Below are positions 6,432-58,527 of a stretch of 64,000 bases of DNA, piece after piece. The stretch spans positions 148,403 to 212,402 of the forward strand of contig JBAZRH010000001.1 of assembly GCA_041663045.1 (NCBI GenBank), in the 5' to 3' direction. The DNA is from Minisyncoccota bacterium. GTDB taxonomy: Bacteria; Patescibacteriota; Minisyncoccia; Phycocordibacterales; GWA1-40-21. The translations under genes and the position numbers were made by a program. Position 1 is the first letter of the stretch. Each line of letters starts with the position of its first letter. The notes beneath the pieces are model-generated. The model was not told the origin of the DNA and did not search any database. It saw only the letters and a program-made list of their open reading frames with translations.

Positions 6432-8318
6432 TTAGCTTTCCAAAACCGCTTTTATTCTTCTGACACCTGCACTCGAAGCTTCTTCCTTCACGATTTTGAA
6501 ATGGCCGAGCTCGCCGGTATTTTTGACATGAGGGCCACCGCAGAATTCAGTGCTGAAATCCCCTACTTTATAGACTTTTACAATATCTCCGTATTTTGAA
6601 AGATCGAAAGAAAGCGTGGTGACGATTTTCTTTGCTTCTTCTTTAGGTAATTCTTTCATTTCGACAGGGATTTTTTCGGCAATTTTTTGATTTACTAGAT
6701 TTTCAACTTCTTTCAATTTATCTGTCGGCACTTTTTCCGGCCAATTAAAGTCGAAACGCATCCTCTCGGCGGTGATATTACTTCCTTTTTGCGCGATTTC
6801 GCCTTTCAGCACATGTCTCAATGATGCCAAAAGTAAATGTGTCGCTGTATGATATTTCGTTTCCATTTCTCCTGTGCCAGCAAGCCCGCCTTTGAATTTC
6901 TGTTCGGAACCAGCTTTTGAGATTTCTTGGTGTTTTTTCATCTCTTCATTAAACTGAAATTCGATTTCTTTAAACTCCCAATCTGGAATTATTCTTCCTT
7001 TATTCCTTAATTCTTCAATTGCTAACTCAAATGGGAAACCATTATTCTGGTATAAATCAAAAAAGAATTCACCAGTTAGATTGCACGGCGTAAAACCATC
7101 ACTTACATCAACAGCAGTTAAAGCCTTTCCTGGTATGTAATTTTGCACTGTGATTTCTGTATTTAAAATCTTTAAGCCTTTTTGAAGAGTCTTCCTAAAT
7201 TTCTCATCCTCTTTTTTAATCACATCCAAAATCTCCCCTTCCTTTTCTTTAAGATAAGGATAAGCGTAATTCAATTTATCAATCACTATTTTTGCTAGAT
7301 TCAGAATCTCCTCTTTTGGAATACCTAGTTGATCTATAAATCTTATAGCTCTTCGCATTATTCTTCTCAAAACATATCCTGCCTCGGTATTTGACGGGTT
7401 TACTCCGTCGGCGATTATCATAACAGCCGAACGAATATGGTCTGCGACTATTCTCTCCGCTCTTTCGTCTTTTTTCTGCGCTTTATTTCTTATTTCAGTA
7501 AGGATTTCTTCAAAGATGTCAGTATCAAAAACTGTAGTCTTTCCTTGCATTACAACAGTAGTCCTTTCGAGTCCCATTCCGGTGTCTACATTTGGTTTTG
7601 CGAGTTTTTCGTATTTTCCATCGGCGGCTTTATTGAATTCCATGAAAACATTGTTCCAGATTTCAATGATTCGGCCGGATTTTACTAGGTCGGCAAACTT
7701 GCCGTTTATAGCGCCTTCTTCTGGGCGAGTATCATAAAACATTTCCGTGTCTCCACCGCAAGGGCCGACAGATCCTGCAATCCAAAAATTATCTTCTTTT
7801 CCGAGAGGAATTATCTTTATGTCCCCTTTTATAATTTCATCTGTACCTGCGACTTCGGCTTTGATATTGAATTTTGAGAAATTTTCTTTCCATATTGAAA
7901 TAGAGTCTTCATCGCGCGGTATGCCATCTTCACCTTTGAAAACCGTTACATAAAGCCTTTTCGGATCAAGTCCAAGGCCTTCTTCTCTACTCGTGAGAAA
8001 CTCAAGGCTCCAAGCAATAGATTCTTTTTTAAAATAATCTCCGAGCGACCAATTTCCCATCATTTCAAAAAAAGTAAGATGGCGATTGTCTCCTACCTCG
8101 TCTATATCACCTGTGCGAACGCATTTTTGGACATTTACTAGGCGGTTGCCAGCAGGGTGTTTCTGGCCAAGCAAATACGGCACGAGAGGTTGCATACCTG
8201 CTGTTGTGAATAGTGAAGAAGGGTCATTTTCAGGGATAAGAGATGCTGAAGGGATTATTTTATGTCCCCTTTTTTCAAAAAATTTTAAATATCTTTGTCG
8301 GATATCTGCGGATTTCAT
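6432..8318 (-). CDS. alaS: alanine--tRNA ligase (short form, no C-Ala domain)
   Basis: 628 aa; class II catalytic core (FTTAGMQPLVPYLLG, HLTFFEMMGNWSLGDYFK), plus editing-domain motifs HTATHLL and CGGPHV near the C-terminus; ends before the usual C-Ala domain. Confidence 0.85.
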   Translation of the reverse strand: MKSADIRQRYLKFFEKRGHKIIPSASLIPENDPSSLFTTAGMQPLVPYLLGQKHPAGNRLVNVQKCVRTGDIDEVGDNRHLTFFEMMGNWSLGDYFKKESIAWSLEFLTSREEGLGLDPKRLYVTVFKGEDGIPRDEDSISIWKENFSKFNIKAEVAGTDEIIKGDIKIIPLGKEDNFWIAGSVGPCGGDTEMFYDTRPEEGAINGKFADLVKSGRIIEIWNNVFMEFNKAADGKYEKLAKPNVDTGMGLERTTVVMQGKTTVFDTDIFEEILTEIRNKAQKKDERAERIVADHIRSAVMIIADGVNPSNTEAGYVLRRIMRRAIRFIDQLGIPKEEILNLAKIVIDKLNYAYPYLKEKEGEILDVIKKEDEKFRKTLQKGLKILNTEITVQNYIPGKALTAVDVSDGFTPCNLTGEFFFDLYQNNGFPFELAIEELRNKGRIIPDWEFKEIEFQFNEEMKKHQEISKAGSEQKFKGGLAGTGEMETKYHTATHLLLASLRHVLKGEIAQKGSNITAERMRFDFNWPEKVPTDKLKEVENLVNQKIAEKIPVEMKELPKEEAKKIVTTLSFDLSKYGDIVKVYKVGDFSTEFCGGPHVKNTGELGHFKIVKEEASSAGVRRIKAVLES

Positions 8319-10014: not shown

Positions 10015-10047
10015 GACCTTATGATAACATAAAATAGCTTTAAGATA

Positions 10048-13171: not shown

Positions 13172-14194
13172 TTATTTATTAATTATTCTTACGATTCCTT
13201 TATCCGCATCGACTTCTATTAAATCACCGTCTTTAAAAACTTGTGTGGCGATTTTGGTACCTATTATACAAGGTTTCTTTAATTCGCGAGCCACTATTGC
13301 CGCATGGCAAGTAATGCCACCCTCATCTGTGACAAAGCCGGCAGCCTTGAGCATGGCCGGAAGAAAATCTGGAGTAGTCATTGGTGATACAATAATTTCA
13401 TCTTTTTGAATATCTTTTACTTGGTCTCTACGTCGAAGGATTCTGACCTTACCCTGCACTATACCCTTAAAAGCGACTTGACCTTTTACATGCTTAATAT
13501 TTTCTGTTATACGTTCAATATTTAATTTACATTGTTTATACTTTTTTGAAAATTCTTCTTGGCTACCGACGAAAAGAATGTCCCCATCAATTAGTGAAGA
13601 GTTATTCATACGTTTAATAAGCTCGTCTTCAGATGGTAAAGATTCAATCTCTTCAGATAGAATAACGTTTGTATATTTAGCTATTTTGGGGAATAGTTCA
13701 CGAATCGTATTACCTATATAGATATCGTTAGACGCAAAGAAAGTGTCATCTTTCCTTATGTCTAGGATCTCATCTGTAATACGTTTTGGCGTTTTCTCAT
13801 TTGTCACGGTGTAGTACCACAAATTAAAATTGAACATTAATTCTTGTAAGAGAATCAGATATTCCCTAAACTCCTTTATGTCTTTTGCCGATTTATTTTG
13901 CCAATATTCTTTTATAATCGATAATTGGGCTCGATATTCATTAAGAGACGTCTTTAGAAGATCAGGATTACCTAGATTCTGCTCAAGTAGTTTATCCTTA
14001 AGCCACTGTGTCGCAAACTGATTATCCCAAACCTCTACTACACCATCAATCATGTGGTGAATAATTATTGGTAAGAATGGATTCTGCCAGCCAAGTTTTT
14101 CTTTGATTCCTCTCGAGAGTTGTTGTGCCCAAATCTGTTGAATAAGGATCGTTGTATCTCTAGTGTAGCTTTTTTCAAATATATATTTATTCAT
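13172..14194 (-). CDS. PEP-utilising-enzyme swivel (phosphohistidine) domain protein, paralog A
   Basis: 340 aa; C-terminal ...VKGQVAFKGIVQGKVRIL...[76 protein letters not shown]; divergent helical N-terminal ~240 aa. Confidence 0.85.
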   Translation of the reverse strand: MNKYIFEKSYTRDTTILIQQIWAQQLSRGIKEKLGWQNPFLPIIIHHMIDGVVEVWDNQFATQWLKDKLLEQNLGNPDLLKTSLNEYRAQLSIIKEYWQNKSAKDIKEFREYLILLQELMFNFNLWYYTVTNEKTPKRITDEILDIRKDDTFFASNDIYIGNTIRELFPKIAKYTNVILSEEIESLPSEDELIKRMNNSSLIDGDILFVGSQEEFSKKYKQCKLNIERITENIKHVKGQVAFKGIVQGKVRILRRRDQVKDIQKDEIIVSPMTTPDFLPAMLKAAGFVTDEGGITCHAAIVARELKKPCIIGTKIATQVFKDGDLIEVDADKGIVRIINK

Positions 14195-14197
14195 ATA

Positions 14198-15532
14198 CTA
14201 TTTTATAATCTTAACCACCCCCTTATCCGCATCGACTTCTATTAAATCACCGTCCTCAAATATACTTGTAGCATGTTTTGTACCGACAATACAAGGTCTT
14301 TTCAACTCTCTAGATATAATAGCCGCGTGAGATGTTAGACCTCCTTCGTCTGTCACTATTGCAGAAGCGAGGCTCATTATTGGTAAAAATTCTGGGCGAG
14401 TACTTGTTGTTATAAGAATTTCCCCCTTTTGAAATTTTCCGAATTGGTGTTCTTTCAATACAATTTTTGCGATGCCTTGCACGACACCCTTACAGGCGAC
14501 TGTGCCTTTCGCGATTTTATTTTTGTCTTTTGACGTCATCCCTTCTATCACTTCCAGGGCGTTATCTTCTGTAAGTAATTTGGGAGGATTGTACTGTGGC
14601 GATATTAGAAAGACACTTTGTCTCTTACGTTTCAAGATAAAATCATTATCTTTTTTAAGTAATTCAATTTCCTCTGGTCTTGCCCAAATAAGATCATTGT
14701 AAGAGACCCCCTCTGTTTTTGATGCTTCGTGTATTATCGTGCTATAACAAACACTCATCATTTGCATATATACTTTCCTCTCTTCTCTCCACAGAGTGAA
14801 AATCTGAAGAAGATGAATAAGATTTTGCGTTTTTTCACTGAGTTTTGGGAGAAGCATTTGTTGTTCAGCTTCTCTCTTCAAATAATCTGTTGGAACCGGT
14901 TTAGGTAAGAAGTCTGCCCCTAGCATCTTTTCTGTAAGAACTTCTCCGCCAATCCAACTTCCTTTATAGTACCAATATTTTTTGATATATTCTTGTTTCG
15001 TCATCTTCCCTTGAAGAACTAATTCAAAATCAATCGCCGCTTTCTGTGTCCTAGTCGGCTCTATCGTCGCAATCAACCCATGAATATGCTCTTTATCTAT
15101 CCCAACTTTTTCTAACTCTTCGGAGATTTGCTTATCGATTTCTTCAGCGAAAGGATCTAGAGATTCAACAAAGTAAGACTCCATCCAAAACTCTGCAGCA
15201 AGGGTATCTACTTCTTTCCACATCTCTTTCCAGTCTTTTATTGGCTTATTTGTAATATTAAATAAATAATTCTCTTTTTTCTGCCATTTCTCTTTCCAAG
15301 ATATGAATCTTTTTGTTACAAATTCTTTTGAAACGCTTACCCAATATTTCATAAGTCCTTCGCTTGCACGCTTTTCAATAAACCATCTAGAAACCCCATT
15401 ATTGTTTATGACGACGAGTAATGCTTTTGTAACGAGGATTACTCCTATGGAGCAGGAATAATAAAACAATGGTGCTGATTCAGCCGATCCTGTTAGGAAA
15501 AAGTCTTCTTTTTTAAATTTCCATCTATCCAT
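14198..15532 (-). CDS. PEP-utilising-enzyme swivel domain protein, paralog B
   Basis: 444 aa; C-terminal TDEGGLTSHAAIISRELKRPCIVGTKHAT...DADKGVVKIIK; N-domain contains IFTLWREERKVYMQMM motif shared with other paralogs. Confidence 0.85.
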   Translation of the reverse strand: MDRWKFKKEDFFLTGSAESAPLFYYSCSIGVILVTKALLVVINNNGVSRWFIEKRASEGLMKYWVSVSKEFVTKRFISWKEKWQKKENYLFNITNKPIKDWKEMWKEVDTLAAEFWMESYFVESLDPFAEEIDKQISEELEKVGIDKEHIHGLIATIEPTRTQKAAIDFELVLQGKMTKQEYIKKYWYYKGSWIGGEVLTEKMLGADFLPKPVPTDYLKREAEQQMLLPKLSEKTQNLIHLLQIFTLWREERKVYMQMMSVCYSTIIHEASKTEGVSYNDLIWARPEEIELLKKDNDFILKRKRQSVFLISPQYNPPKLLTEDNALEVIEGMTSKDKNKIAKGTVACKGVVQGIAKIVLKEHQFGKFQKGEILITTSTRPEFLPIMSLASAIVTDEGGLTSHAAIISRELKRPCIVGTKHATSIFEDGDLIEVDADKGVVKIIK

Positions 15533-15547
15533 ATTTATTTCGTTATA

Positions 15548-17113
15548 TTAATCTTTTATTATCCTTACGATTCCCTTATCTGCATCCACTTCCACCAAAT
15601 CCCCGTCTTTTAGCACCTTTGTGGCAATCTTTGTGCCTATTATACAAGGAATACCTAGCTCTCTTGAAACAATCGCGGCGTGGCAACTAATACCTCCCTC
15701 ATCCGTGATTATAGCGCCAGCAATTTTCATTGCAGGAACATAGTTTGGCATAGTCATACTCGTCACAAGTATTTCCCCAGCTTCTAATTTACCTATCTCA
15801 TTTGCAGAATGTAATACTTTCACAATACCTTTAACAAGTCCTTTGCATGCAATATTTCCCTTAAATGTATCGACTCTTTCTGTCTTTTTTTCAATTATCT
15901 CTTTTATTTTTTCACCGATTGCTATATCTAATTCGTATATTGTGTCTTTAGTATATATGACAGCATACCCGCCACTTCTTTCAAGGATCTTGTTTAGATT
16001 GATCTTTTCTCCAAGCAAGAAATCTGTGATTTCCCAGAAATTGAATAGGCAGATTTTCTTATGATTATCTAGTCCAGCCCTTTTTCCTATTTCATAAAAT
16101 AGATTTTGAACTTTATAGCACACCTCTTCTAGTTTCTCTACTCTTAGTAAACGAATGTGCGCCAAATCAGATGCCTGATGTGCATAAGTAATAACAACTT
16201 TATTTAATCCAGCCTCTTTTATTATTTGTTTTTTTGCTTTAATAAGTCTTTTCTTTGCTTCTTCAATCTCATTTAGTTTTTTCTGTGGATTTTCTCCGAG
16301 TACCTTTTTTAGGTTATTAATAAAATCAGCAAAGCTCTCATAATTAAATCTAAGTTCGGCGTCTGGAATCCAGGCATATTTTTCATAAACATTTTTGATT
16401 ATCTTTATCTGATTGTCTTTAACACCGCTTAAATTTTCATTTAGTGATTGTACATCTACAAAAGTCGATATTTTTATTGCAAGTTTTATCAAAGATTCCT
16501 CTTTTTCTTGAATAGTTGAAATAGTTTCTGAAGAAGTTAAAAGACGTAAGCTTTCCTGTAGCTCTTCATAATTATTGATTGGATTATATACTTTTGATAG
16601 TTCCTCAGTAATTATTCTTATTAGTCCATCTTCTGCTAAAAGCGGTGGCCATAGGTAGACCAATACATTAAATGAGAAATTAAGATATTTTTCATAATAT
16701 TTAAGTAATTTCTTGTCACACATAACAGAAAAATCTATTTTACTTGTTTTATCTGCCCATGTATCAAATAATTTACATTCTTTATATAACCCTGAAAATA
16801 GTTTATCTAAATACCGATAATCTTCTCTGCACTTCTTTTCAAATAGTACTTTGATTTTATCGGCGTTTTCTTCCTGGGAGTATACGTCGTAGTTTAGAGT
16901 CATTATCTTATCCATTTTATTTTTCAGACCAAAATCTTCCCTATCTGAAACACATCCAACACGGATGAGAGAGTCAAAAAGAGGAGAGTTTAACCTCTTT
17001 AAAACTTTGAACCACTTTTCAGAAGCCAGAGTACCAATTTCTTGTCCAGAGATCGTATTAGTTAAGGTTTTATAATCACCTTCTGATATTTTTATCTTTC
17101 TCGTATTTTTCAT
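15548..17113 (-). CDS. PEP-utilising-enzyme swivel domain protein, paralog C
   Basis: 521 aa; C-terminal [53 protein letters not shown]; 4-nt overlap with next gene. Confidence 0.85.
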   Translation of the reverse strand: MKNTRKIKISEGDYKTLTNTISGQEIGTLASEKWFKVLKRLNSPLFDSLIRVGCVSDREDFGLKNKMDKIMTLNYDVYSQEENADKIKVLFEKKCREDYRYLDKLFSGLYKECKLFDTWADKTSKIDFSVMCDKKLLKYYEKYLNFSFNVLVYLWPPLLAEDGLIRIITEELSKVYNPINNYEELQESLRLLTSSETISTIQEKEESLIKLAIKISTFVDVQSLNENLSGVKDNQIKIIKNVYEKYAWIPDAELRFNYESFADFINNLKKVLGENPQKKLNEIEEAKKRLIKAKKQIIKEAGLNKVVITYAHQASDLAHIRLLRVEKLEEVCYKVQNLFYEIGKRAGLDNHKKICLFNFWEITDFLLGEKINLNKILERSGGYAVIYTKDTIYELDIAIGEKIKEIIEKKTERVDTFKGNIACKGLVKGIVKVLHSANEIGKLEAGEILVTSMTMPNYVPAMKIAGAIITDEGGISCHAAIVSRELGIPCIIGTKIATKVLKDGDLVEVDADKGIVRIIKD

Positions 17114-20100
17114 TTTTTCTTATTTAATAATCTTACCACCCCCTTATCTGCATCCACTTCCACTAAATCTCCATCTTTAAGCACCTGCATAGAGTGTAAA
17201 CAACCGACAATACAAGGGATTTTTAATTCTCTGCTTATTATAGCCGCGTGAGATGTTATACCGCCTTCGTCAGCAATGATGGCAGCCGCTTTTCTCGCTA
17301 TTGCCATCATATTTGGCTGGGTCATACTTGTCACGAGAATTTCACCTTCTTTAAAGTCCTTTATACTTTTTTGTAGCATATCCAAATCTCCAGCTATAAC
17401 CTTCCTGACTTTTCCCGTCGCCTTTCCCAACATAGCAATTTGACCCTTTATTGTATTATCAATATTGATAATTTTCTTAATTTTTTCTTTAAAAAGATTA
17501 TTTGCTTCATCTGCTCCAACAACTCTAAGTTTATTATCACTTATTATAATTGCATAGGATTCTTTTCTGTCTACGATTATTGATTTTATATTTCCACGAT
17601 GTGTTCCATTTAACAATTCAATTGTCTCTGGTGGGGTAACAAAATCTAGCATATCAGATAGAGAGATATTAATTCTCTTTGATACCTCATTTAATAAATG
17701 CCTAGATAAATAATACGATCCTGCCCAATATGATTTTATATTCATCCTCTCGATTGATTGGTATTGTAAAAAGTCGGATAAATATTTTACTTCGTCACTT
17801 TCTGATCCAATTTTTCTGTAAATATTCTCCTGTCCTCTTCTGAGCTTCTCCTTATCTTCTTTTAATTTAGAATATTCTAGTCTATACGTATTTTTTTCAG
17901 ATTTTTTTCTATTCTCAAGAAACTTGAGAGTCCTTTTATCGTCGTATTGGCCGAAGACAAGCCAAGGATACTTTGATAGATGTTTTAGTAAAATCGAGTC
18001 ATCGTGTTTTTTTGATAAAATACTTAGCCAATCTAAATATTCTCTTTGTATATCATCAAGAGAAAGCGGAGTTGATAATATACCAAAAACTCTCGGCCAA
18101 TCATTATTAAAATATTTTCTAATAATCTCTTCTAATCTCTGCTCGGCTTTATAAGTAAATTCTGTCCTAGTGCTTCCAAAATATGCTATCGAATCTTTAG
18201 CGTGATCAATAAAAGAATTATAATCTTTAATTATTTGCCCATTTGTATATCTCGAAAAATCTACCGATTCGATTTTTCTCACCCAATTCCACCATTTCTT
18301 TGCTGCTACCCTATACTTAGATTTGTATTTATTGAAATATTTCTCGTCTAGGTATTTTTCTCCAATTTCTTTGAATTTATCTAGCTGTTTTTTAGGCATA
18401 TAAGTTGTGATCACCGATCCATCAAAATAACAGAATATTTCACCCTCTCCATATATATCCCCGTGAGTTATCAAGGCCTCTGAAGTAGTCCATGATGCTG
18501 GCATTATAGGAGTCGTACTCCACATAAAGACCCATTCATCGTTATTTTTTTCTGATATTCCAACCTCTTTTTTAAGTATCTTTATTACTCCCTTATCCGC
18601 ATCGACTTCCACCAGATCTCCATCTTTGAAAACTTGCGTGGCGATTTTGGTACCGACAATACATGGGATTTTTAATTCCCTGGAAATAATTGCCGCGTGG
18701 CAAGTTAAACCCCCTTCATCTGTAACAATAGCTGCGGCATTTTTTAAATAAGGGACAATTTGAGGGTTGGTCATACCAGAAACTAATATTGTACCGGGAG
18801 GAATATCGGCTCCATTCATAAGACTAAGATGTATTTTGACTGGACCTATCGCTTTTCCATGAAAAGCGATATTTCCTTTTACTTCAGCAACGTTTTGGGG
18901 TTCCAAGATTTTTTTCCAGGACAAATATTCGTTACCAGTTAAAAGATCGTTGCTTACCTTTCTGTATGGTAACAATGCCAAACCATTCATCCTCTCATTA
19001 AGCTCGTCCTTGTTTGGCACTCTTTGTCCATACAAGATCTCTTCTATTTCACAACTTCTAAGCGAGAAAGCTTGATTTAACGTAATGTGATGTTTATCAG
19101 CTAATCCCTGCATAAAATCAGTGAGGATCTCAAATAACGGACCAAGAGAGTTGTGTATTTTGAATTTCAATTCACCGAGTTTTATTAATCTGTTCAAAAT
19201 AGATTTTTGTTGTTTATTGAATTTTAATTTCGTAGCATAAGTTGAATCGTGTAATGCTTTTATTAAATTACTTTCTGTTTTAGCTGCTTTTATTATAATG
19301 TTTTCCAACGCTACCAGAACAGGTTGTTCACAGTATAAATATAGATTGCCTATTTTATCAAATAAATTTTCTATTATTTTCCATCGAGATATTTTATCTT
19401 TATCTGAAACTTTATCTAATTTGGTCTGAAGAGACTCTGGCTTTAACTCTTCGGCCAATTTTTTTAACTCTTTTATTTTTTGATTAGCAAATTTGTCATT
19501 TAAGAGTTTTTCTCCAAGATCAAATGCTTGTCTTTGGCCTTCTTTACTCAGATATCCAGCGATATGATCGTCTTTCTGTAAGACAACATAATCAATTTGG
19601 CCATAATTTTTTGGACGAAAAGCTATATCTGTGAAAATAAAAGGAAAATCTGTTTGACGAAAATGAAGTATATAAGAGTCTCTTTCTTCACTGTTTTTAT
19701 CTTTCAAAATCTTAATCACGCCTTTGTCTGCATCCACCTCGATTTCATCACCATCTTTGATAATTTGAGTGGCAATTTTTGTATCTATAATACATGGCTT
19801 ATGAATTTCTCTCGAGACTATGGCGGCATGACATAATAATCCACCTATATCTGTGATTATGGCAGAAGCCTGTTGCATCAAGATAACAAAATCTGGCGTT
19901 GTCATTGTGGACACTAGAATATCTCCAGCTTTCATTTTATGAAATTCATCTCTATTTATAACAACTCTAGCAATTCCTCGGACTTTTCCAGGATATGCTA
20001 CTACGCCTTTTGTTTCCTTCGCGTCTTTATCGGCATGAGGCAACATCTTGTCTTTTAAGTATTCAATATCTTCTTTATCCTCAATAACAATAGAATTTTC

Positions 20101-20766
20101 TTCCTTGTTGGCAAATAGAAACCAGTTTAAATCTCTCCTCCTTATTCCTCGTTTTTTTAGTTCATCTTTTTCAATTTCTCCTTTTAGTCCGGAAAGTATT
20201 TCAGTTGGAGAAAGCATTGTAAATTGACGATATTCTAGATTCAACTCTTTCGCTACAGCATGAAATAGCGGATATGCTTTGGCTGAAAGCATTGAAAAAT
20301 ATTCCGTAGAAACTTGTTTTACATAACCACAAGCGTGCATACACTCTGCACAAAATTCTAGTTTTTTAGAAACTTTCGGTAAAACCTTTTTTGTATGTAC
20401 CCCAGCATCTTTCGAATGAATTATTTGCTCATAAAGTCTGTCAACGGTTAATAATTCACCCACGAAGTTCAAGACTTCAATCCACTCATATTTTTCTGCA
20501 TGTTCCTCAAGCTTCTTTAATAGTGTTTTATTTTTCTTAACTTCTTTAAGGGTTTTGTTTCCGATTAACTTTTTAAGTTTCAAAACTTCTTGTTGTTGGA
20601 TTGTCAGTGGCGAAATAACCTGAGGTATTAAATCAGGTACAAGATCGGCTGGAAACTTTTCTTTGACGACTATATCCGCTAAAACTTCTTCAGATGCTTC
20701 AACAAGAAAAGTCGCACCCAGAAGCCATATAAAATTTAGCTTTCTAATTTCACCGAAAAGTTCCAA
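17110..20766 (-). CDS. triple-module PEP-utilising swivel domain protein (three N-domain + swivel units in one ORF), paralog D
   Basis: 1218 aa from the TTG/first-Met call. Swivel domains at approx nt 19712-19990 ([25 protein letters not shown]), 18585-18850 ([25 protein letters not shown]) and 17113-17400 ([25 protein letters not shown]). The reading frame stays open upstream to nt 21129 with no ATG. Confidence 0.8.
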   Translation of the reverse strand: MELFGEIRKLNFIWLLGATFLVEASEEVLADIVVKEKFPADLVPDLIPQVISPLTIQQQEVLKLKKLIGNKTLKEVKKNKTLLKKLEEHAEKYEWIEVLNFVGELLTVDRLYEQIIHSKDAGVHTKKVLPKVSKKLEFCAECMHACGYVKQVSTEYFSMLSAKAYPLFHAVAKELNLEYRQFTMLSPTEILSGLKGEIEKDELKKRGIRRRDLNWFLFANKEENSIVIEDKEDIEYLKDKMLPHADKDAKETKGVVAYPGKVRGIARVVINRDEFHKMKAGDILVSTMTTPDFVILMQQASAIITDIGGLLCHAAIVSREIHKPCIIDTKIATQIIKDGDEIEVDADKGVIKILKDKNSEERDSYILHFRQTDFPFIFTDIAFRPKNYGQIDYVVLQKDDHIAGYLSKEGQRQAFDLGEKLLNDKFANQKIKELKKLAEELKPESLQTKLDKVSDKDKISRWKIIENLFDKIGNLYLYCEQPVLVALENIIIKAAKTESNLIKALHDSTYATKLKFNKQQKSILNRLIKLGELKFKIHNSLGPLFEILTDFMQGLADKHHITLNQAFSLRSCEIEEILYGQRVPNKDELNERMNGLALLPYRKVSNDLLTGNEYLSWKKILEPQNVAEVKGNIAFHGKAIGPVKIHLSLMNGADIPPGTILVSGMTNPQIVPYLKNAAAIVTDEGGLTCHAAIISRELKIPCIVGTKIATQVFKDGDLVEVDADKGVIKILKKEVGISEKNNDEWVFMWSTTPIMPASWTTSEALITHGDIYGEGEIFCYFDGSVITTYMPKKQLDKFKEIGEKYLDEKYFNKYKSKYRVAAKKWWNWVRKIESVDFSRYTNGQIIKDYNSFIDHAKDSIAYFGSTRTEFTYKAEQRLEEIIRKYFNNDWPRVFGILSTPLSLDDIQREYLDWLSILSKKHDDSILLKHLSKYPWLVFGQYDDKRTLKFLENRKKSEKNTYRLEYSKLKEDKEKLRRGQENIYRKIGSESDEVKYLSDFLQYQSIERMNIKSYWAGSYYLSRHLLNEVSKRINISLSDMLDFVTPPETIELLNGTHRGNIKSIIVDRKESYAIIISDNKLRVVGADEANNLFKEKIKKIINIDNTIKGQIAMLGKATGKVRKVIAGDLDMLQKSIKDFKEGEILVTSMTQPNMMAIARKAAAIIADEGGITSHAAIISRELKIPCIVGCLHSMQVLKDGDLVEVDADKGVVRLLNKKK

Positions 20767-21110
20767 TATATTATTAAAGGAGGCACTCTTATCTTTTAGT
20801 GTACCCGCATATTCTATCGCACCTTTGCATACTGAATCGCAAACTTTTTTTGCATTATCAAAAAAAACTTTATCCCCATTAATAATTTTATTTTTAATCT
20901 GACCTTGTACAAATGTGGCTAAAGATTTTTTAACAATAAAATTACCCCCCGCAAGCGAGCTCGTCCCTGTTTCCGGTATATTTAGCCCTAGTCTATCTGC
21001 TATCTCTTTATTATAACAATCTTCCCAAAAACAAGATGATAAAATATCATTTTTCCATAGACCATAAAATTTCTGATCATCTACATTAAAACTAGCTAAT
21101 TCAGGAGAGT

Positions 21111-22106
21111 TTAGTTTTTTTTTACTTCTTCAGCTTTTGCCTCTGCTCTTATTGAATCTTTATTTGTCAGCGTAGTGATGGGCCTGCTTTGTACTATATA
21201 AAATTTTCCTTTTTCAAAAGCCCATTCTATATCGCAAGGGAAACCATAATGATTCTCGATTTTCATTATTAAATCTGCGAATTCAAAGATTTGTTTTTCA
21301 GTGAGTACTTGAGATGATGCTTTTGGTTCAGAAATATCGATCCACTCATTGCCACCAGTTGAAACTCTATATAAACCTCTTGCTTGTGTTGAAATATTTG
21401 TATCGATAATTCTTCTCGGATCCTTCTCGACAACATATGAATCTGGTGTTATCTGTCCAGACACTATGGCTTCCCCAAGACCAAATCCAGCTTCTATAAT
21501 CATCTGATTTCTGTCTTCGGTAACAGGATGTACAGAGAAAGCTATACCGGAAACTTCAGAATTTACCATTTTTTGTATGACGACAGCGACTGAAATCTTT
21601 GTCTCGTGTAAATCTTTTTCAAATCTATAAAAAATAGCTCTCGGAGTGAAAAGTGATGCCCAGCAATGCTGAACTTTTTCTAAAACATTTTTCTCTTTAG
21701 TATTTAAATATGAATCAAGTTGTCCTGCCCAAGCGTTTTCTGCGCCGTCTTCTGCGGTGGCGGACGAACGGACGGCTACGAATTCGGTATCTAACTTTTT
21801 AAACTGCGACATTATCTCTTTCGCAATATTTTCTGGCATATCGGCGTTTTTGATAAGACTTTGAATTTTCTCTGAAGCGACTTCAACACTATTTATATCT
21901 TTGTGATTTACTGTATGTAAAACAGTATCTATTTCTTCAGAAAGATTTGCACCTTTTACGAATTCATCGAAAGTAGTTGAGAGGACGACAAAACCCGGCG
22001 GCACTGGTATTCCTGCCTGTGTCATTTCTCCAAGTGAGGCGCCTTTTCCACCGGCAATATCGGCATTGCTTTTATTCAATTCTCTGAAATGCAACGTTAA
22101 TTTCAT
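21111..22106 (-). CDS. PEP synthase / pyruvate-phosphate dikinase N-terminal ATP-grasp (nucleotide-binding) domain protein, stand-alone
   Basis: 331 aa; IAGGKGASLGEMTQAGIPVPPGFVV ... VAVRSSATAEDGAENAWAGQLDSY ... CDIEWAFEKGKFYIVQSRPIT covers Pfam PPDK_N end to end; no swivel or TIM-barrel domain; stop codon sits inside an A9 run. Confidence 0.85.
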   Translation of the reverse strand: MKLTLHFRELNKSNADIAGGKGASLGEMTQAGIPVPPGFVVLSTTFDEFVKGANLSEEIDTVLHTVNHKDINSVEVASEKIQSLIKNADMPENIAKEIMSQFKKLDTEFVAVRSSATAEDGAENAWAGQLDSYLNTKEKNVLEKVQHCWASLFTPRAIFYRFEKDLHETKISVAVVIQKMVNSEVSGIAFSVHPVTEDRNQMIIEAGFGLGEAIVSGQITPDSYVVEKDPRRIIDTNISTQARGLYRVSTGGNEWIDISEPKASSQVLTEKQIFEFADLIMKIENHYGFPCDIEWAFEKGKFYIVQSRPITTLTNKDSIRAEAKAEEVKKN

Positions 22107-22165
22107 ACTGGAAACTATAACAAATTATATATCACTTGGGAAGCTTATTTTTAGTGATAAAAGTG
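22107..22165 (-). promoter_or_regulatory. candidate extended -10 promoter for the PPDK_N gene
   Basis: minus-strand TGATATATAAT ~22 nt upstream of the ATG at 22106; weak -35. Confidence 0.3.
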
Positions 22166-22287: not shown

Positions 22288-22923
22288 ATGACGCACAGCA
22301 AACGTAAACTGGTGGCGGTGTTTCAGAGACATGGTGCCACAAACAAAGCGCAAGCGGGTCAGCATGATCTTACCCGCACGCTAAGCGAGGAAGGACGGAA
22401 GCAGGCGGCGTTGATTGGGTCAAAGATCGGTTACAAAATTGACCTTATCATCTCGTCTGCTGCTGGGCGCGCGGTGGAAACAGCATGTATCACGGCACGG
22501 GCGGCGGGTCAGCTCCCGGATGGGGTTCAGCACTTCGCCGAAGATGTGCTTTATCCGCACGAGCATACCTATCCGATTTTGGACGCAGCGTTCAAGAAAA
22601 TCGGGTATGCGCCGCTCGCGAGCTATCTCCTCGACCCAAATGTGGTAAAGGAGACCGCAGCTTACGCGATACGTGCAATGGGCAGGATATGGGAAATCAT
22701 CAACGAGGCCGACTCCGGTCTCGAAGATGAAAAGCAGCCGTTTGTTGTGTTAATAACCTCACACGCCGTCTGCGCCAATATCCTGGCACGGAATATGCAA
22801 CTCGGTACCGACGCGACGCTTGAGGACCTCGTCCTTGTCGGCAGTACGTCAATGGATGCCGGGTCAGCGATCGTGATTGAGCTCGAGGATGACAAGTCCT
22901 CGGCCAAATATATTACGCCGTGA
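22288..22923 (+). CDS. histidine-phosphatase-superfamily protein, SixA-like (phosphohistidine phosphatase-like)
   Basis: 211 aa; RHG motif (VFQRHGAT), LISSAAGRAVETA and LITSHAV second-His motif in the order/spacing of E. coli SixA; strong AAGGAGG RBS; GC-rich codon usage unlike neighbours. Confidence 0.6.
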   Translation: MTHSKRKLVAVFQRHGATNKAQAGQHDLTRTLSEEGRKQAALIGSKIGYKIDLIISSAAGRAVETACITARAAGQLPDGVQHFAEDVLYPHEHTYPILDAAFKKIGYAPLASYLLDPNVVKETAAYAIRAMGRIWEIINEADSGLEDEKQPFVVLITSHAVCANILARNMQLGTDATLEDLVLVGSTSMDAGSAIVIELEDDKSSAKYITP

Positions 22924-23142: not shown

Positions 23143-23616
23143 GTGAGTGCAAATACAAAGCGGATTCTATGTGTGTGCTACGGCAACAGCGACAGGAGTC
23201 CGGCGATGGCGGCGGTACTCAACATGTATCTCAAGAACGCCGGGTACAAGACTTATTGTGAAAGTGCCGGCGTCGGGGAAAATGCTGCGAAAGGCGGTTC
23301 GGCTGCAAAGTTTGCGATTGACGCCTGTAGTCAGATTGGTCTCAATATCTCGGGTCACGACAAGCGTCGGACGACGACGCTCGATCTTAACAGCTACGAT
23401 CTTGTCGTCTGTGCAGACTGTTTGGTCGCCGAGATGCTCATCAAGCAAGGTTGCGACATCGGCAAGATATACAATGCCGAGATTCCCAATCCATGGCCGG
23501 TGAAGTTCAAAGCACAGTACACCGAGACATTCCAGCGAATCCTCGCCGCAATGTATCTCGTCGTGGACCGATACTTCGTCAACATGAATGAAGTGGACGG
23601 TCCGCAAGGTGGTTAA
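23143..23616 (+). CDS. low-molecular-weight protein phosphatase family protein (LMW-PTP / ArsC / YwlE-like)
   Basis: 157 aa; N-terminal P-loop ILCVCYGNSDRSPAMAA = C-x5-R-(S) signature of LMW-PTP/ArsC family; GC-rich. Confidence 0.6.
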   Translation: MSANTKRILCVCYGNSDRSPAMAAVLNMYLKNAGYKTYCESAGVGENAAKGGSAAKFAIDACSQIGLNISGHDKRRTTTLDLNSYDLVVCADCLVAEMLIKQGCDIGKIYNAEIPNPWPVKFKAQYTETFQRILAAMYLVVDRYFVNMNEVDGPQGG

Positions 23617-23637: not shown

Positions 23638-23673
23638 GAGCCCAACTGTAAAAAGTTGGGCTCTATTTTTTTT
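23638..23673 (+). terminator. rho-independent terminator
   Basis: GAGCCCAACT-gtaaaa-AGTTGGGCTC followed by TATTTTTTTTAT. Confidence 0.65.
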
Positions 23674-25114
23674 ATATTATTCTTATAATTCCCTTTTCGG
23701 CGTCTAGCTCTACTTTGTCGCCATCTTTCAATACTTTAGTTGCTATTTTTGTACCGATAATGCAAGGAATATTTAATTCACGAGAGATTATAGCGGCATG
23801 GCAAGTGATTCCGCCTTCATCTGTGATTATTCCCCCAGCACGTTTAATAAGAGGTGCAAAATCAGGAGTCGTCATACCTGTGACAATAATATCTCCATTA
23901 TCAAAATTATTCACATGAGAACTTTTTAGTACACGTACCTTCCCTACCACTTTTCCTTTATTCGCAACTTGTCCATGAATTTCCTTTATATCTTTATGAT
24001 CGGTTTTCCACGGCACATTTAACTTTATTAGAAGTTTTCTAGCATTGGAACCTTCATGATATGTACTTCCTTTATCAGAATTTGTTTCTATCACAATATC
24101 CATTCTGTTTTTTATATTTATGCTTATATCCTTTCCAGATATTGCGAGCCTTGCCAGTCTCGGGTCAAGATACCTTGCTTCATCTAAAGTCAGATTTAAT
24201 TTTGAAGCGGCCCATTTAAGGATTATATCATTGAAATAATAACAGATTTGGGCACTAAGCATCTTTCTGTCGTCCTGCATCAAAGACAGGTTTCTCATTA
24301 TCTTGAATAAATAGTTTGTCTCTTCAGAGAATTTATATTTCTCCTGATACTCTTCTTGTAGCAAAACAATATCAATGTTTTGTGAAGTTTTATTATATTC
24401 TTTTGATACCAAAGTTTCTTCAACTCTTTTTGATACAGTTTCTTCTGTCCAGACTATAGGTCCCACATATTCATATGGAAACCAGAAGTATTTATCAGAG
24501 AATATCTTTATGGCTTCTTTAGTATTGATATTTTCTAATCCATTGGACTTGGCTATTTTTAGCAGATTTTTAAATTCCTCTTCTTCTATCTGGCTATATG
24601 ATTTTTCTTGATGACTGACCATTATAGGTAATATTTTATGTGCCTCATCTATGCCGTATTCTTTAAGATGATTTAGTAATTGTCTTTCGGCCTCGGCTCC
24701 ACCAAAAAGCCACAGAATCATATTTTTACGCATCAATTCTTGATAAGTGATTATGAATTTATCAAAGAAATCTGGGAAGCTTTCAATATCTCTGTTTACA
24801 CAAGTATCGGCGAATTCTTTACATAAATCCACCGCTTTTTGCCCGGCTTCTATGCCCTCTTTTCTTATCTTCTCAAGATTATCTTTATTTTCCCAAAGTA
24901 TTTTAAAAGCCCCTTCATTTCTGTCTTTTGAGAATTCTTTTTCAACTACTGCTGTGAAGTGACCGTTTTCCCATATCTCTAGAGATATCCCTCTTTTAAT
25001 TTTTAAATATTCGCCAAGAGGCCAAGAAAAATATGCTGACAAAGGAAAAAGAGCTGGTATATACCTAGTACGCACCATTATCCAGTCTTCTGGTTTATAT
25101 TTCTTTTCAGGCAT
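23672..25114 (-). CDS. PEP-utilising-enzyme swivel domain protein, paralog F
   Basis: 480 aa; C-terminal [51 protein letters not shown]. Confidence 0.85.
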   Translation of the reverse strand: MPEKKYKPEDWIMVRTRYIPALFPLSAYFSWPLGEYLKIKRGISLEIWENGHFTAVVEKEFSKDRNEGAFKILWENKDNLEKIRKEGIEAGQKAVDLCKEFADTCVNRDIESFPDFFDKFIITYQELMRKNMILWLFGGAEAERQLLNHLKEYGIDEAHKILPIMVSHQEKSYSQIEEEEFKNLLKIAKSNGLENINTKEAIKIFSDKYFWFPYEYVGPIVWTEETVSKRVEETLVSKEYNKTSQNIDIVLLQEEYQEKYKFSEETNYLFKIMRNLSLMQDDRKMLSAQICYYFNDIILKWAASKLNLTLDEARYLDPRLARLAISGKDISINIKNRMDIVIETNSDKGSTYHEGSNARKLLIKLNVPWKTDHKDIKEIHGQVANKGKVVGKVRVLKSSHVNNFDNGDIIVTGMTTPDFAPLIKRAGGIITDEGGITCHAAIISRELNIPCIIGTKIATKVLKDGDKVELDAEKGIIRII

Positions 25115-25128
25115 ATCTTTTGAGTCTC

Positions 25129-26001
25129 CTATCCTTGAGCTATTTGTTCCACAACAGAGAGATCAATTTCTTCATCAATACTAAAATCATTTAGAGGTGT
25201 ATCGCTCTTTTTGCTATATTTCAAGTGTAATGTAGGTTTTTCTGATCCAGCTTTTGTAATAACATCCAATTCAAATCCTTCCGTTACATCAAAACCGGTA
25301 TTTTTTAATGCTTTTATAAGTTTATTTCTCTCCTCGATGCCTTTTGTCATTTCTACAACTTTCATCAAGAAACTTTCTGCAATACCTTGATGGGTAGCAA
25401 AGAATCTTTTCATTTCTGGTTCATATTTATCACTTTTTTCTTCGACGAGCTTATTCCATCTTGGAGCAATATTAAAATATTTTAAGACAATTTCCGCTAC
25501 GCCTTTTGCTTGACGAGAATATGTTAGCTGTCCTTCAAAACCTTGTTCTTTTGCCAGTGTGTCGCTTTGATCTGCCAAAAATTCCATGAATTTTCCTTTA
25601 GTGAAAGCGTCTATCGCTTGTTTTTCATACTCTGTCTTTCCAATAGAAAAGTCGAGACGTGAATCTACATTGAATTTTGAGCCGTAAGCCAAATCTTTAT
25701 CAATCTTAGTTTTTAGTTCTTCCAATGTCTCGTTACCGGTTATTTCGTCTTCTCCTCCAGCCATCACAAAACCTGCTGTTTCCCAGGTGCGTTCTTTTGT
25801 AGAGACGAAAGCCACAGATTGATCTATATCACTTCCCTTTTCAGCCTTGTTTTTAGCTTGCATACGGCCTCCTGGAGTAAGTCGGATTTGTTCATCTGTC
25901 TTTGTTTTATCTTTCTCTTTTTCGCCATGGCGGAAGAAGTTTAGAATTATTTCTGATTGATATTCTCTTATTGCCTCCGGACTTTTGATTTGTGATTCCA
26001 T
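25129..26001 (-). CDS. histidine-phosphatase-superfamily (PGAM/SixA-like) protein, native composition
   Basis: 290 aa; FFRHGEKE (RHG catalytic motif) near N-terminus and ATHQGIAE second His motif near C-terminus. Confidence 0.5.
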   Translation of the reverse strand: MESQIKSPEAIREYQSEIILNFFRHGEKEKDKTKTDEQIRLTPGGRMQAKNKAEKGSDIDQSVAFVSTKERTWETAGFVMAGGEDEITGNETLEELKTKIDKDLAYGSKFNVDSRLDFSIGKTEYEKQAIDAFTKGKFMEFLADQSDTLAKEQGFEGQLTYSRQAKGVAEIVLKYFNIAPRWNKLVEEKSDKYEPEMKRFFATHQGIAESFLMKVVEMTKGIEERNKLIKALKNTGFDVTEGFELDVITKAGSEKPTLHLKYSKKSDTPLNDFSIDEEIDLSVVEQIAQG

Positions 26002-57087: not shown

Positions 57088-58527
57088 ATGAAAATTACCG
57101 ATATTAAAAATGACGAGCTTAAATATATGGTTGAGAGGATTGAGCCATATTTTGCTTCGTCTATTATAATTAGAGGGATGGTTGATAAGAAAAACGTCGA
57201 GAATATTCTTGAATGGAGAGCTGGAGTAAGATGGTTATATACTAATAATTATTTTTTTGCTAAAACGAGTGATCAAAAGATTGCTAAGGAAGATTTACAA
57301 AATAAATTCAAAAAAGGAGGGAATATTTATACTGGTAATCTAATAAAGAAATGTTTTGAACTTGGCAATCAACTAATTGAAGTCGCAAAGTCCATTGAGG
57401 TAATTACAAGTAAAGAAAACTTAGCCACCGAAGAAATGTATGATTGTCTAAAAAGATACTTGGATTCTGCTAGTAATTATATGATTTTTCAAAATCTGGT
57501 TTTGTTTGAAGACCCAATCTCGGAATTAGCCCGCAATACAGTAAAGAAATATGCAAAAAGTGAAAAGGAAGAAAATGAACTTCTTGGACTTATAACTACT
57601 GCTAGCCATCTAACTGGCGGGGAAAAAGAGCAGGATGATTTTCTAAGATTAGGTATTAAGAAAGCCACTGATAAGGAAATTGACGAACATGCTAGAAAAT
57701 ATGGTTGGCTAGCAATAAGATTCTTTGTTGGGGAACCGTGGACTAAAAATGATGTACTAGGGCGACTTTCTAGAACTGATTCTGTATCTGCTGAGATAGA
57801 ACTCAAAAAAAGGATTGAGTATCGGGAAGGAATTGAGAAAAAAATCATAAAGGCGATAGATGTTTTTAGCAAAGAAGACAAAGATATTGTTCAGCTCATT
57901 AGAGATGTTGTATATCTACGTACCCAGAGGACAGACTTCTTTCAGGAGTCGTCGTATTACGTACAAACTTTAGTAAAGGAAATTGCTATTAATTTTGGCG
58001 TTTCTTATTACGATCTTCTCTATTTGAGTGTACCAGAAGTCTTACAAGCACTGAAGGATAAGTTCAATGTAATAGGAAGCATTGAGAAAAGAAAGAAAGG
58101 CTTTGTCGTTTTTTTTGATTACGATGAAGATCATATTCTTGAAGGATCTGAAGCAAAAAAATTCGTCGATGAAAGACCGATATTAAATCATAGAACTTTG
58201 GAGGTGAAGGAATTGAAGGGCAGTATTGGATATAAAGGCAAGGCAAAAGGAAGCGTATGTATTGTTAAAACGGCCCATGACAATTCTAAAGTTAAAGAGG
58301 GGGATATTATTGTTGCGATTATGACTACGCCCAACTTTATCCCAGCATTAGAAAAAGCATCTGCATTTATTACTGATGAAGGCGGAATTACTTGTCATGC
58401 TGCAATTATAGCTCGGGAAATGAAAAAGCCCTGTATTATTGGTACTAAAAATGCTACCCAAGTTTTAAAAGATGGAGATTTGGTTGAGGTGGATGCTGAT
58501 AAGGGGGTGGTGAGAATAATTAAATAA
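57088..58527 (+). CDS. PEP-utilising-enzyme swivel domain protein, outlying paralog U
   Basis: 479 aa; C-terminal [52 protein letters not shown]; VYLRTQRTDFF motif in N-domain. Confidence 0.85.
   Translation: MKITDIKNDELKYMVERIEPYFASSIIIRGMVDKKNVENILEWRAGVRWLYTNNYFFAKTSDQKIAKEDLQNKFKKGGNIYTGNLIKKCFELGNQLIEVAKSIEVITSKENLATEEMYDCLKRYLDSASNYMIFQNLVLFEDPISELARNTVKKYAKSEKEENELLGLITTASHLTGGEKEQDDFLRLGIKKATDKEIDEHARKYGWLAIRFFVGEPWTKNDVLGRLSRTDSVSAEIELKKRIEYREGIEKKIIKAIDVFSKEDKDIVQLIRDVVYLRTQRTDFFQESSYYVQTLVKEIAINFGVSYYDLLYLSVPEVLQALKDKFNVIGSIEKRKKGFVVFFDYDEDHILEGSEAKKFVDERPILNHRTLEVKELKGSIGYKGKAKGSVCIVKTAHDNSKVKEGDIIVAIMTTPNFIPALEKASAFITDEGGITCHAAIIAREMKKPCIIGTKNATQVLKDGDLVEVDADKGVVRIIK

Follow-up and report, generated by a model that had tools for sequence, protein, structure and literature searches.

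An RPH-like dikinase gene probably broken at a linker poly-A tract in a Minisyncoccota bacterium

Where a kinase gene stops just past a run of nine adenines, and a long reading frame that lacks a start codon lies open through the same run, is the run a programmed recoding site, a mutated tract, a miscounted one, or only the place where two genes happen to meet? The question arises in a 64,000-nucleotide stretch of a Minisyncoccota bacterium (GenBank assembly GCA_041663045.1, contig JBAZRH010000001.1, positions 148,403 to 212,402; hereafter the window), where an open reading frame (ORF) for a PPDK_N ATP-grasp domain, ORF1, ends at a run of nine A (A9), and a much longer one, ORF2, follows in the -1 frame. 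Our answer is that the two are probably a single gene for a kinase resembling rifampin phosphotransferase (RPH), broken at a linker poly-A tract that is either unstable in length or miscounted, and not a proven programmed frameshift. The intact gene would encode an ATP-grasp domain, a linker of about 20 residues and three units that each pair a substrate-binding domain with a phosphohistidine swivel domain; the frame break would be a one-base shortfall, A9 in place of A10, in the poly-A tract of that linker.

The junction and the frame behind it

ORF1 (21111-22106, minus strand) encodes 331 aa, in which the PPDK_N ATP-grasp domain, recognized by its PF01326 and PDB matches, is followed by an 18-residue linker tail past the SRPITTL motif, TNKDSIRAEAKAEEVKKN. 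Its 3' end reads GCT GAA GAA GTA AAA AAA AAC TAA, with the TAA at 21111-21113, and the A9 homopolymer (T9 on the plus strand) occupies 21115-21123 within the inter-domain linker. After a TGA at 21130-21132, the -1 frame reads AGA AGT AAA AAA AAA CTA AAC TCT CCT GAA, opening two codons 5' of the run and remaining open for 1338 codons to a stop at 17110; the 1334 codons past the run are uninterrupted. The frame may have broken anywhere between this TGA and the TAA of the 0 frame. An earlier note on this DNA had given the ORF1 ending, the A9 run and the -1 frame just as we find them, although the 21 nt that it quoted for the end of ORF1 span 21111-21131 rather than 21111-21133. Its open frame of about 120 codons without ATG is, counted from the TGA, a stretch of 121 codons without ATG, GTG or TTG. 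ORF2 was listed as starting at TTG 20766 because this is the first such codon in the frame; the first ATG is codon 263. The remainder of ORF2 from that TTG (17110-20766, minus strand) holds the rest of module 1 and the whole of modules 2 and 3; in every module a swivel domain follows the substrate-binding domain. Between the A9 run and the TTG lies the start-less stretch itself (20767-21114, minus strand), read in the -1 frame as (KKK)LN-SPELASFNVDDQKFYGLWKNDILSSCFWEDC..., which homology and modelling identify as the N-terminal third of the first substrate-binding domain.

A single base separates these two frames from one. Adding one A to the run yields a single ORF of 1665 aa, whereas A8 or A11 at the junction leads to ...KKTKLS*, and joining therefore takes a one-base gain or a -1 slip and nothing else. 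The predicted fusion would contain the junction peptide EEVKKKLNSPELASF, and ORF1 as assembled ends in EEVKKN. The run stands alone in the window as the only A or T run of at least nine. Long runs are depleted there relative to an independent and identically distributed (iid) expectation (T8, 4 observed against 8.2 expected; T9, 1 against 3.0; T10 and longer, 0 against 1.5), while runs of five to seven occur about twice as often as expected. KKK is rare in the window and is never seen coded by A alone.

The codons ahead of the TTG are conserved. The 114 start-less codons align with residues 11-124 of a stand-alone module, P0121, at 41% identity (E = 2e-33), and with residues 791-904 of P0004 at 46% identity (E = 1e-36), where the module-1-like unit comes after a swivel domain as the third unit of the protein. 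An AlphaFold model of the first ORF2 unit has block means of 80-97 in the predicted local distance difference test (pLDDT) over residues 1-120, and its values remain above 80 for the most part as far as about residue 360-370. With the hypothetical fusion as query, each of the 120 best homologs combines PF01326 with PF00391 in a single protein, 900-2900 aa long, and in P0012, P0020 and P0122 the same junction is read in one frame, as SRPITTL, a linker of 10-24 residues and then SPEL..F..Y.F.G.WK.D...CFW.DC. A homolog search with module 1 alone gave four matches, from which we took natural N-termini: the stand-alone modules P0121 and P0123 have their own Met about 10 residues ahead of the SPEL motif, and at that position the window has R S K K K L N, where nothing could serve as a start. 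Because the start-less codons thus form the N-terminus of a conserved, confidently folded domain that relatives either fuse or begin with Met, coincidence, which the earlier note had kept as one of three options, is excluded.

The two ends that meet at the run likewise look like the inside of a gene. The 18 residues of ORF1 past SRPITTL reach to the module, while six natural stand-alone PPDK_N genes end 1-5 residues past that motif. The start-less lead of 121 codons is the largest among 85 family ORFs in the window and related loci; the others start 0-32 codons from the opening of their frame, except for one with a 78-codon leader (in locus L001) and one with an in-frame TGA (in L003, described below). 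A near-cognate start for ORF2 was considered and rejected, as the first 28 codons past the A9 run contain no NTG or ATN codon and the first to appear is an ATT within the conserved GLWKNDILSS motif. An alternative genetic code or stop read-through was rejected as well, since the 0 frame meets a TAG four codons past the TAA. Taken together, the sequences support a single gene as the ancestral and functional state of ORF1 and ORF2. This half of the earlier note's second option, that the two are one gene, holds in view of the 120 fused homologs and the three in-frame junctions; its other half, that the split is a sequencing error, competes on nearly equal terms with a real allele.

What the joined gene would encode can be read from its domains. 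Residues 16-324 of ORF1 match Pfam PF01326 (PPDK_N) at 3e-99, and the ATP-grasp domains of phosphoenolpyruvate (PEP) synthase and RPH-Lm in the PDB at 1e-96 to 3e-78, the last value being that for RPH-Lm. ORF2, extended through the start-less stretch, contains three PF00391 (PEP-utilizers) swivel domains on the minus strand, each with a GG-x-x-x-H phosphohistidine motif: the first, with the catalytic His, at 19684-20007, the second at 18568-18876 (TDEGGLTCHAAIISRE) and the third at 17116-17430 (ADEGGITSHAAIISRE). Each is preceded by 350-400 residues without a Pfam match. In a Foldseek search of the PDB with the model of module 1 and its swivel domain, six RPH-Lm entries were the only significant matches (E 2e-6 to 5e-4, probability 1.00, query TM scores (TMq) of 0.37-0.48), the moderate TM scores reflecting a swivel part that is poorly modelled. 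Like the window gene, RPH-Lm (PDB 5FBS/5FBT/5FBU, 5HV1-3; PMC4844700) has an ATP-grasp domain, a substrate-binding domain that is entirely helical and, at the C-terminus, a swivel domain with T-x-x-G-G-x-x-x-H, but the window gene has three serial units of substrate domain and swivel after one ATP-grasp, with 21 more encoded separately, and its identity to the rifampin (RIF)-binding domain is about 14%.

Two more specific identities were tried and fell away. PEP synthase was rejected, as Pfam finds no PEP/pyruvate-binding TIM-barrel domain in ORF2 and the scores for PRK06464, 338 and 320 bits, lie far under its cut-off of 598. A rifampin kinase is not demonstrable either: against the Rph equivalog NF041857 of NCBIfam, with a cut-off of 999 bits, ORF1 scores 297 and ORF2 159, and for this reason we do not take rifampin to be the substrate. 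The ATP-grasp domain, the swivel histidine and the RIF-binding-type fold of RPH-like dikinases are all present, and the single polypeptide is present only with A10 and not as assembled. Judged by its sequence, the product of ORF1 and ORF2 together is an RPH-like small-molecule dikinase, to which we assign no substrate.

Linker tracts and module architecture in the family

A junction-spanning query against genome and metagenome contigs returned 21 related loci, none of them from the species of the window, so that there is no orthologous junction to compare. The best match in these scans, at 89% identity, covers the ATP-grasp alone, with unrelated modules downstream, and no second copy of the window gene was found in the contig scans or by an exact-match query of the assembly collection with ORF1. 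Protein and contig searches found no ortholog of the window junction that carries a shift. The comparison of fused and split orthologs that the earlier note proposed could therefore be made in part: the same junction is in frame in P0012, P0020, P0122 and L023, and no shifted counterpart was found.

A comparable split does occur at another junction of the family. In locus L027 (ENA ERZ27250158 k141_448703), the 2042-aa protein P0003 ends in VVKVLKKK*, encoded by CTA AAA AAA AAG TAA, with an A9 run at 15199-15207. There, too, the -1 frame opens two codons 5' of the run, and it continues for at least 198 codons into the next module, whose first start is a GTG 24 codons in; the L028 homolog of this module has its own ATG at that natural N-terminus. 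The geometry is that of the window: the A9 run is followed one codon on by TAA, and a single added A would fuse the frames. A protein from another assembly, P0125 (2842 aa, from a 1.05-Mb contig of JGI 3300072015), falls in the 90% cluster of P0003 and is identical to it over 2042 of 2042 residues; it then runs on through KKKVKIEFTEIF, identical to the L027 -1 frame over 201 of 201 residues (2243 of 2243 in total). An identical gene is thus split in one assembly and fused in another, which means that the tract is either hypermutable in vivo or miscounted by sequencing, and since P0125 encodes the same gene fused, the split is not a fixed recoding arrangement. A second long tract of L027, an in-frame A11 in an ATP-grasp-to-module linker (10020-10030), agrees with two other assemblies. 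If its difference is biological rather than technical, the pair of L027 and P0125 resembles phase-variable contingency loci (PMC2831843, PMC1891110), where the length of a homopolymer is off by one base in sequences that are otherwise the same. The classic cases, however, turn a gene on or off, while here the toggle would be the covalent linkage of domains, and the pair is known from assemblies alone.

Such tracts recur at the joints of these proteins. In a survey of 160 kb of family coding sequence, of which inter-domain linkers make up 2.6%, most long runs sit in linkers. In-frame A9 runs occur in L023 (408-416), at the same ATP-grasp-to-module-1 junction, in L024 (5400-5408), with the identical GTA AAA AAA AAC, and in a linker of L026 (2613-2621), and linkers of L028 (10163-10170) and L030 (9911-9918) each contain an in-frame A8; the sole further A9 in the survey is internal, in L032. 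Lysine is not much more common in linkers (11.8%, against 9.7% elsewhere), but the KK[KN] motif is about eightfold commoner there, and it is written as an uninterrupted A8 or longer in 6 of 8 linker cases against 6 of 34 elsewhere (Fisher p = 0.0036). In the literature searched, we found no published description of poly-A tracts at these module boundaries, or of phase variation in Saccharibacteria. Within the window, an A8/T8 run at 23666-23673 was examined as a possible second split and rejected, as it overlaps the stop of a 480-aa module gene (23672-25114); the 165-codon minus-strand frame that follows it is antisense to an LMWPc phosphatase gene, has no module-like sequence and was judged to be chance.

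The modules themselves are arranged in more than one way. Six of the 21 related loci have stand-alone PPDK_N genes, and in L003, L009 and L019 the module gene directly after such a gene has its own start (TAA ATG in L009); in the remaining loci the ATP-grasp domain is fused to one to five modules. The closest ATP-grasp relatives of ORF1 (L001, L010, L012 and P0032, at 84-89% identity) are followed by wholly different modules, and the best matches of the window's modules lie at other positions of other proteins, as with module 1 and the third unit of P0004. These patterns in the sequences indicate a rapid shuffling of modules at linkers.

In the window the array is large and its kinase domain single. 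There are 24 swivel modules (13172-49425 on the minus strand and 57088-58527 on the plus strand) and one PPDK_N ATP-grasp, that of ORF1. Three of the modules lie in ORF2, two in a 996-aa gene (46435-49425) and the other 19 in closely abutting single-module genes (340-572 aa). With one ATP-grasp for 24 swivel modules, most of the modules must be served in trans, which implies one kinase domain acting on many substrate modules, and a free ORF1 product is therefore plausibly functional. ORF1 qualifies as a separate ATP-grasp subunit and the 21 other modules of the window as separate partners; ORF2, which has no start of its own, does not, and that lack is the one abnormal thing about the arrangement. 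We found no published description of a multi-swivel array with one ATP-grasp in the candidate phyla radiation (CPR) in the literature searched, and this array of 24 swivel domains with a single ATP-grasp, flanked by phosphatases of the histidine and tyrosine types, is, like the crowding of poly-A tracts at module boundaries, more unusual than the split gene itself.

Allele, miscount or programmed slip

If the two ORFs are one broken gene, the break is either a genuine contracted allele or a homopolymer miscall, and the sequences incline us only slightly to the former. The lean rests on three considerations: no other frame break occurs among about 40 tiled minus-strand genes with 42 runs of seven or eight; the A11 of the L027 assembly agrees with two other assemblies; and tracts this long are expected to mutate fast, with a split that would be tolerable when the ATP-grasp acts in trans. 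On a genuine allele, standard decoding would give a free ATP-grasp protein, able to serve the 21 separately encoded swivel modules in trans. RNA polymerase slippage on A9/T9, mostly by insertion of one A, would give a minority of A10 transcripts and some fusion protein, and some -1 ribosomal slippage on A AAA AAA might add to this minority of full-length fusion, which would be the sole route to translation of an intact module 1. Such rescue would be incidental unless conservation of the tract were shown.

Parts of this scheme have precedent. In HpeHI, CreHI and PpsAB, a separate ATP-grasp polypeptide phosphorylates the swivel histidine of a substrate/swivel subunit in trans (PMC12167813), and by analogy free ORF1 could serve the single-module genes of the window in the same mode. 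Those systems pair one ATP-grasp with one partner, each with its own start codon, whereas ORF2 of the window lacks a start and is read through the tract. Bacterial RNA polymerase slips efficiently on runs of nine A or T (PMC5009743), and insertions dominate slippage at homopolymers (PMC5574713). In Buchnera and Blochmannia, frameshifts in poly(A) tracts are rescued by polymerase infidelity, with frameshifted endosymbiont genes restored in 12-50% of transcripts (PMC5009743), an interpretation questioned elsewhere (PMC5574713). The window case, if genuine, is alike in its AT-rich reduced genome and in having a gene that is intact apart from a 1-nt indel in a long A tract. It differs in that the host is of the CPR/Patescibacteria type and the tract lies in a linker, so that an unrescued, free ATP-grasp would plausibly function.

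The alternative that survives best is a branch of this same explanation, a pure assembly or sequencing artefact in which an ordinary 1665-aa gene with A10 exists in the genome and the consensus dropped one A. We rate it somewhat below an even chance. Every sequencing platform is prone to deletion-type miscalls at long homopolymers, the break falls at the longest homopolymer of the window, L027 and P0125 differ at such a tract alone, and the in-frame A9 and A11 of relatives in the same linker make an in-frame A10 plausible here. It is harder to square with a densely tiled 64 kb in which none of the 42 shorter runs breaks a frame, or with an L027 assembly that is correct at A11 yet differs at A9/A10; moreover, long tracts are expected to be hypermutable in vivo, which makes a real variant at least as likely.

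A programmed device fares less well. In this scenario, the first option of the earlier note, A9 would be a selected site of transcriptional slippage, -1 frameshifting or both, fixing the ratio of free ATP-grasp to three-module fusion, much as in Thermus dnaX (but with the roles of its long and short products exchanged), insertion sequence (IS) transposases and mxiE. The physics is sound. A9 is the threshold length for efficient RNA polymerase slippage (at least nine A or T; PMC5009743), and A AAA AAA is, as the earlier note held, a valid X XXY YYZ heptamer in the 0 frame, inside the overlap of the two frames. Past the run, the 0 frame closes after 1 codon and the +1 frame after 3, while the -1 frame goes on for 1334 codons; ORF2 is intact; L027 repeats the A9, TAA and one-more-A geometry; and long tracts in the family are concentrated in linkers, with prompt stops in both alternative frames. 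Nevertheless, the signs of programming that we looked for are missing. Folding is weaker than in shuffled controls both for the 95 nt downstream of the run (z = +0.96) and for 101 nt centred on its neighbourhood (z = +1.77), with no stem-loop or pseudoknot of the kind that the earlier note had proposed to look for 5-9 nt past the slippery site. No Shine-Dalgarno (SD)-like stimulator lies upstream of A9, in a genome that is essentially free of such motifs (2 weak matches in the 25 nt upstream of about 41 minus-strand starts), and for the same reason a test for a ribosome-binding site ahead of the downstream gene is uninformative. Neither a promoter nor a terminator lies between the ORFs (20767-21110), and an Rfam scan of the window found tRNAs only. 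The searches yielded no ortholog in which conservation could be shown, relatives with the same junction are plainly in frame, and L027 and P0125 show an identical gene whose split state is not fixed. We therefore regard slippage on A9, if the run is real, as credible and programmed ratio control as quite unlikely.

Transcriptional slippage at a run of nine in dnaX of Thermus thermophilus is experimentally shown and conserved (PMC5009743), and the window shares with it the A9/T9 run and nearby stops in the frames that do not continue, and would share a mixed mRNA giving one long and one short product. In dnaX, however, the long product is the unslipped one, whereas in the window the long product needs the slip, and the window case is known from sequence alone.

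Several observations weigh against the reading of one accidentally broken gene. The in-frame version needs A10, which would exceed every other run in the window, and this genome otherwise avoids both long runs and KKK. Both out-of-frame cases, in the window and in L027, share the same geometry of A9 and one more A, and both alternative frames stop within four codons of all five in-frame tracts of at least nine, against about 17% of A6-A7 runs in the same genes, a comparison with a post hoc threshold and a small sample of five tracts. Shared geometry and prompt alternative-frame stops could reflect selection for slippage sites and thus a functional device. The search for a second copy of the window tract came back empty, and the choice between allele and miscall stays close to even, with its slight lean toward the allele; the A10 of P0125 was deduced from its protein sequence. 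That ORF2 is intact over 1334 codons would be expected if the break is very recent or if the frame is still expressed.

These points feed a wider conjecture, which we hold tentatively and consider unlikely, though less so than programmed ratio control in this one gene: linker poly-A tracts in the multi-module dikinases of CPR and DPANN would be maintained as slippage or phase-variation sites. By RNA polymerase slippage, reversible 1-nt indels or both, they would set the number of substrate modules covalently tethered to the one ATP-grasp domain against the number left to work in trans. On this view the window and L027 both represent the state in which A9 splits and one more A fuses. It is hinted at by the concentration of tracts in linkers, by their pure A coding there where KK[KN] is broken by AAG elsewhere, by the prompt stops and by the two matching out-of-frame cases.

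Finally, that ORF1 is a natural stand-alone gene and ORF2 a second one, started at TTG 20766 or at a non-canonical codon behind a coincidentally open frame, is very improbable: stand-alone PPDK_N genes followed by separate module genes do exist in 6 of the 21 related loci and the window encodes 21 modules separately, but here the 114 codons ahead of the TTG are a conserved, confidently folded domain, natural stand-alone modules use an ATG about 10 residues before SPEL where the window has no NTG or ATN for 28 codons past the run, the tail of ORF1 has the length of a linker rather than a terminus, and the 121-codon lead exceeds that of every other family ORF examined.

Setting of the locus and what it means

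Around the broken gene, the window is AT-rich, with a GC content of about 35%, and encodes bacterial rpoA, uvrA/C, mnmA and alaS, which mark the organism as a bacterium; in the contig scans, its nearest relatives are metagenome-assembled genomes (MAGs) of Candidatus Saccharibacteria and other Patescibacteria. Directly downstream of ORF2 and in the same orientation (13172-17113, minus strand) lie three single-module genes (340, 444 and 521 aa), all of which start at an ATG of their own and place the swivel domain at the C-terminus. Upstream of ORF1, a promoter-like site, TTCCCA-17-TATAGT with a TG extension (22114-22142, minus strand), ends 8 nt 5' of the ATG and might possibly mark a leaderless or short-leader transcript start for the gene; it is a consensus match only, of a kind with 5 sites against 5.5 expected in shuffled sequence. 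Upstream of the window's genes the sequence is rich in A and T, and TATAAT-like boxes lie 7-12 nt ahead of the ATG in several cases, ORF1 among them, a pattern that suggests leaderless or SD-independent initiation in this genome.

Phosphatase genes of the His_Phos_1 and LMWPc families stand beside the dikinase genes, in the window at 22288-22923 (plus), 23143-23616 (plus) and 25129-26001 (minus), and in several relatives unrelated to it at L022 10726-11322, L024 6510-6950, L026 6183-6752, L028 8453-9160 and L029 100-711. This recurrence suggests a conserved pairing of kinase and phosphatase in dikinase loci. Between 22001 and 24000 of the window, GC rises to 46% against about 35% elsewhere and GC skew is reversed, in coincidence with the two plus-strand phosphatase genes that sit between minus-strand module genes. 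In one related locus, L003 (a Candidatus Saccharibacteria MAG, CAYUVX010000003.1, about 6960-7020), a module gene that begins ATG AGT TTA TCA meets an in-frame TGA (TAT CCT TGA TAC) after 20 codons, past which the conserved module continues for 495 codons without a start. A homopolymer shift was rejected for this start-less module once the in-frame TGA was found; the TGA could be a nonsense mutation, the mark of a pseudogene, an error or a recoded stop.

The splitting of a multidomain gene by a homopolymer indel, with possible rescue by slippage, is a known kind of event, and the window gene adds a new instance of it, from a family and a lineage that are both unusual. For annotation, ORF1 and ORF2 are best entered as one interrupted gene or a possible homopolymer error, and not as a stand-alone ATP-grasp protein followed by a truncated 1218-aa protein with a TTG start. 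If the A9 of the window were really A10, the split would be an artefact, and the family-level pattern of tracts would remain. Recoding and phase variation have hardly been examined in CPR and DPANN lineages, and in this little-studied family of theirs single-base changes in linker poly-A tracts cross the boundary between fused and trans-acting modules. Such changes could be one route by which modular arrays are rearranged, and slippage at the same tracts could give mixed products. Should the tracts prove to be under selection, they would represent a new use of homopolymer slippage, the tuning of domain tethering in a multi-substrate kinase.

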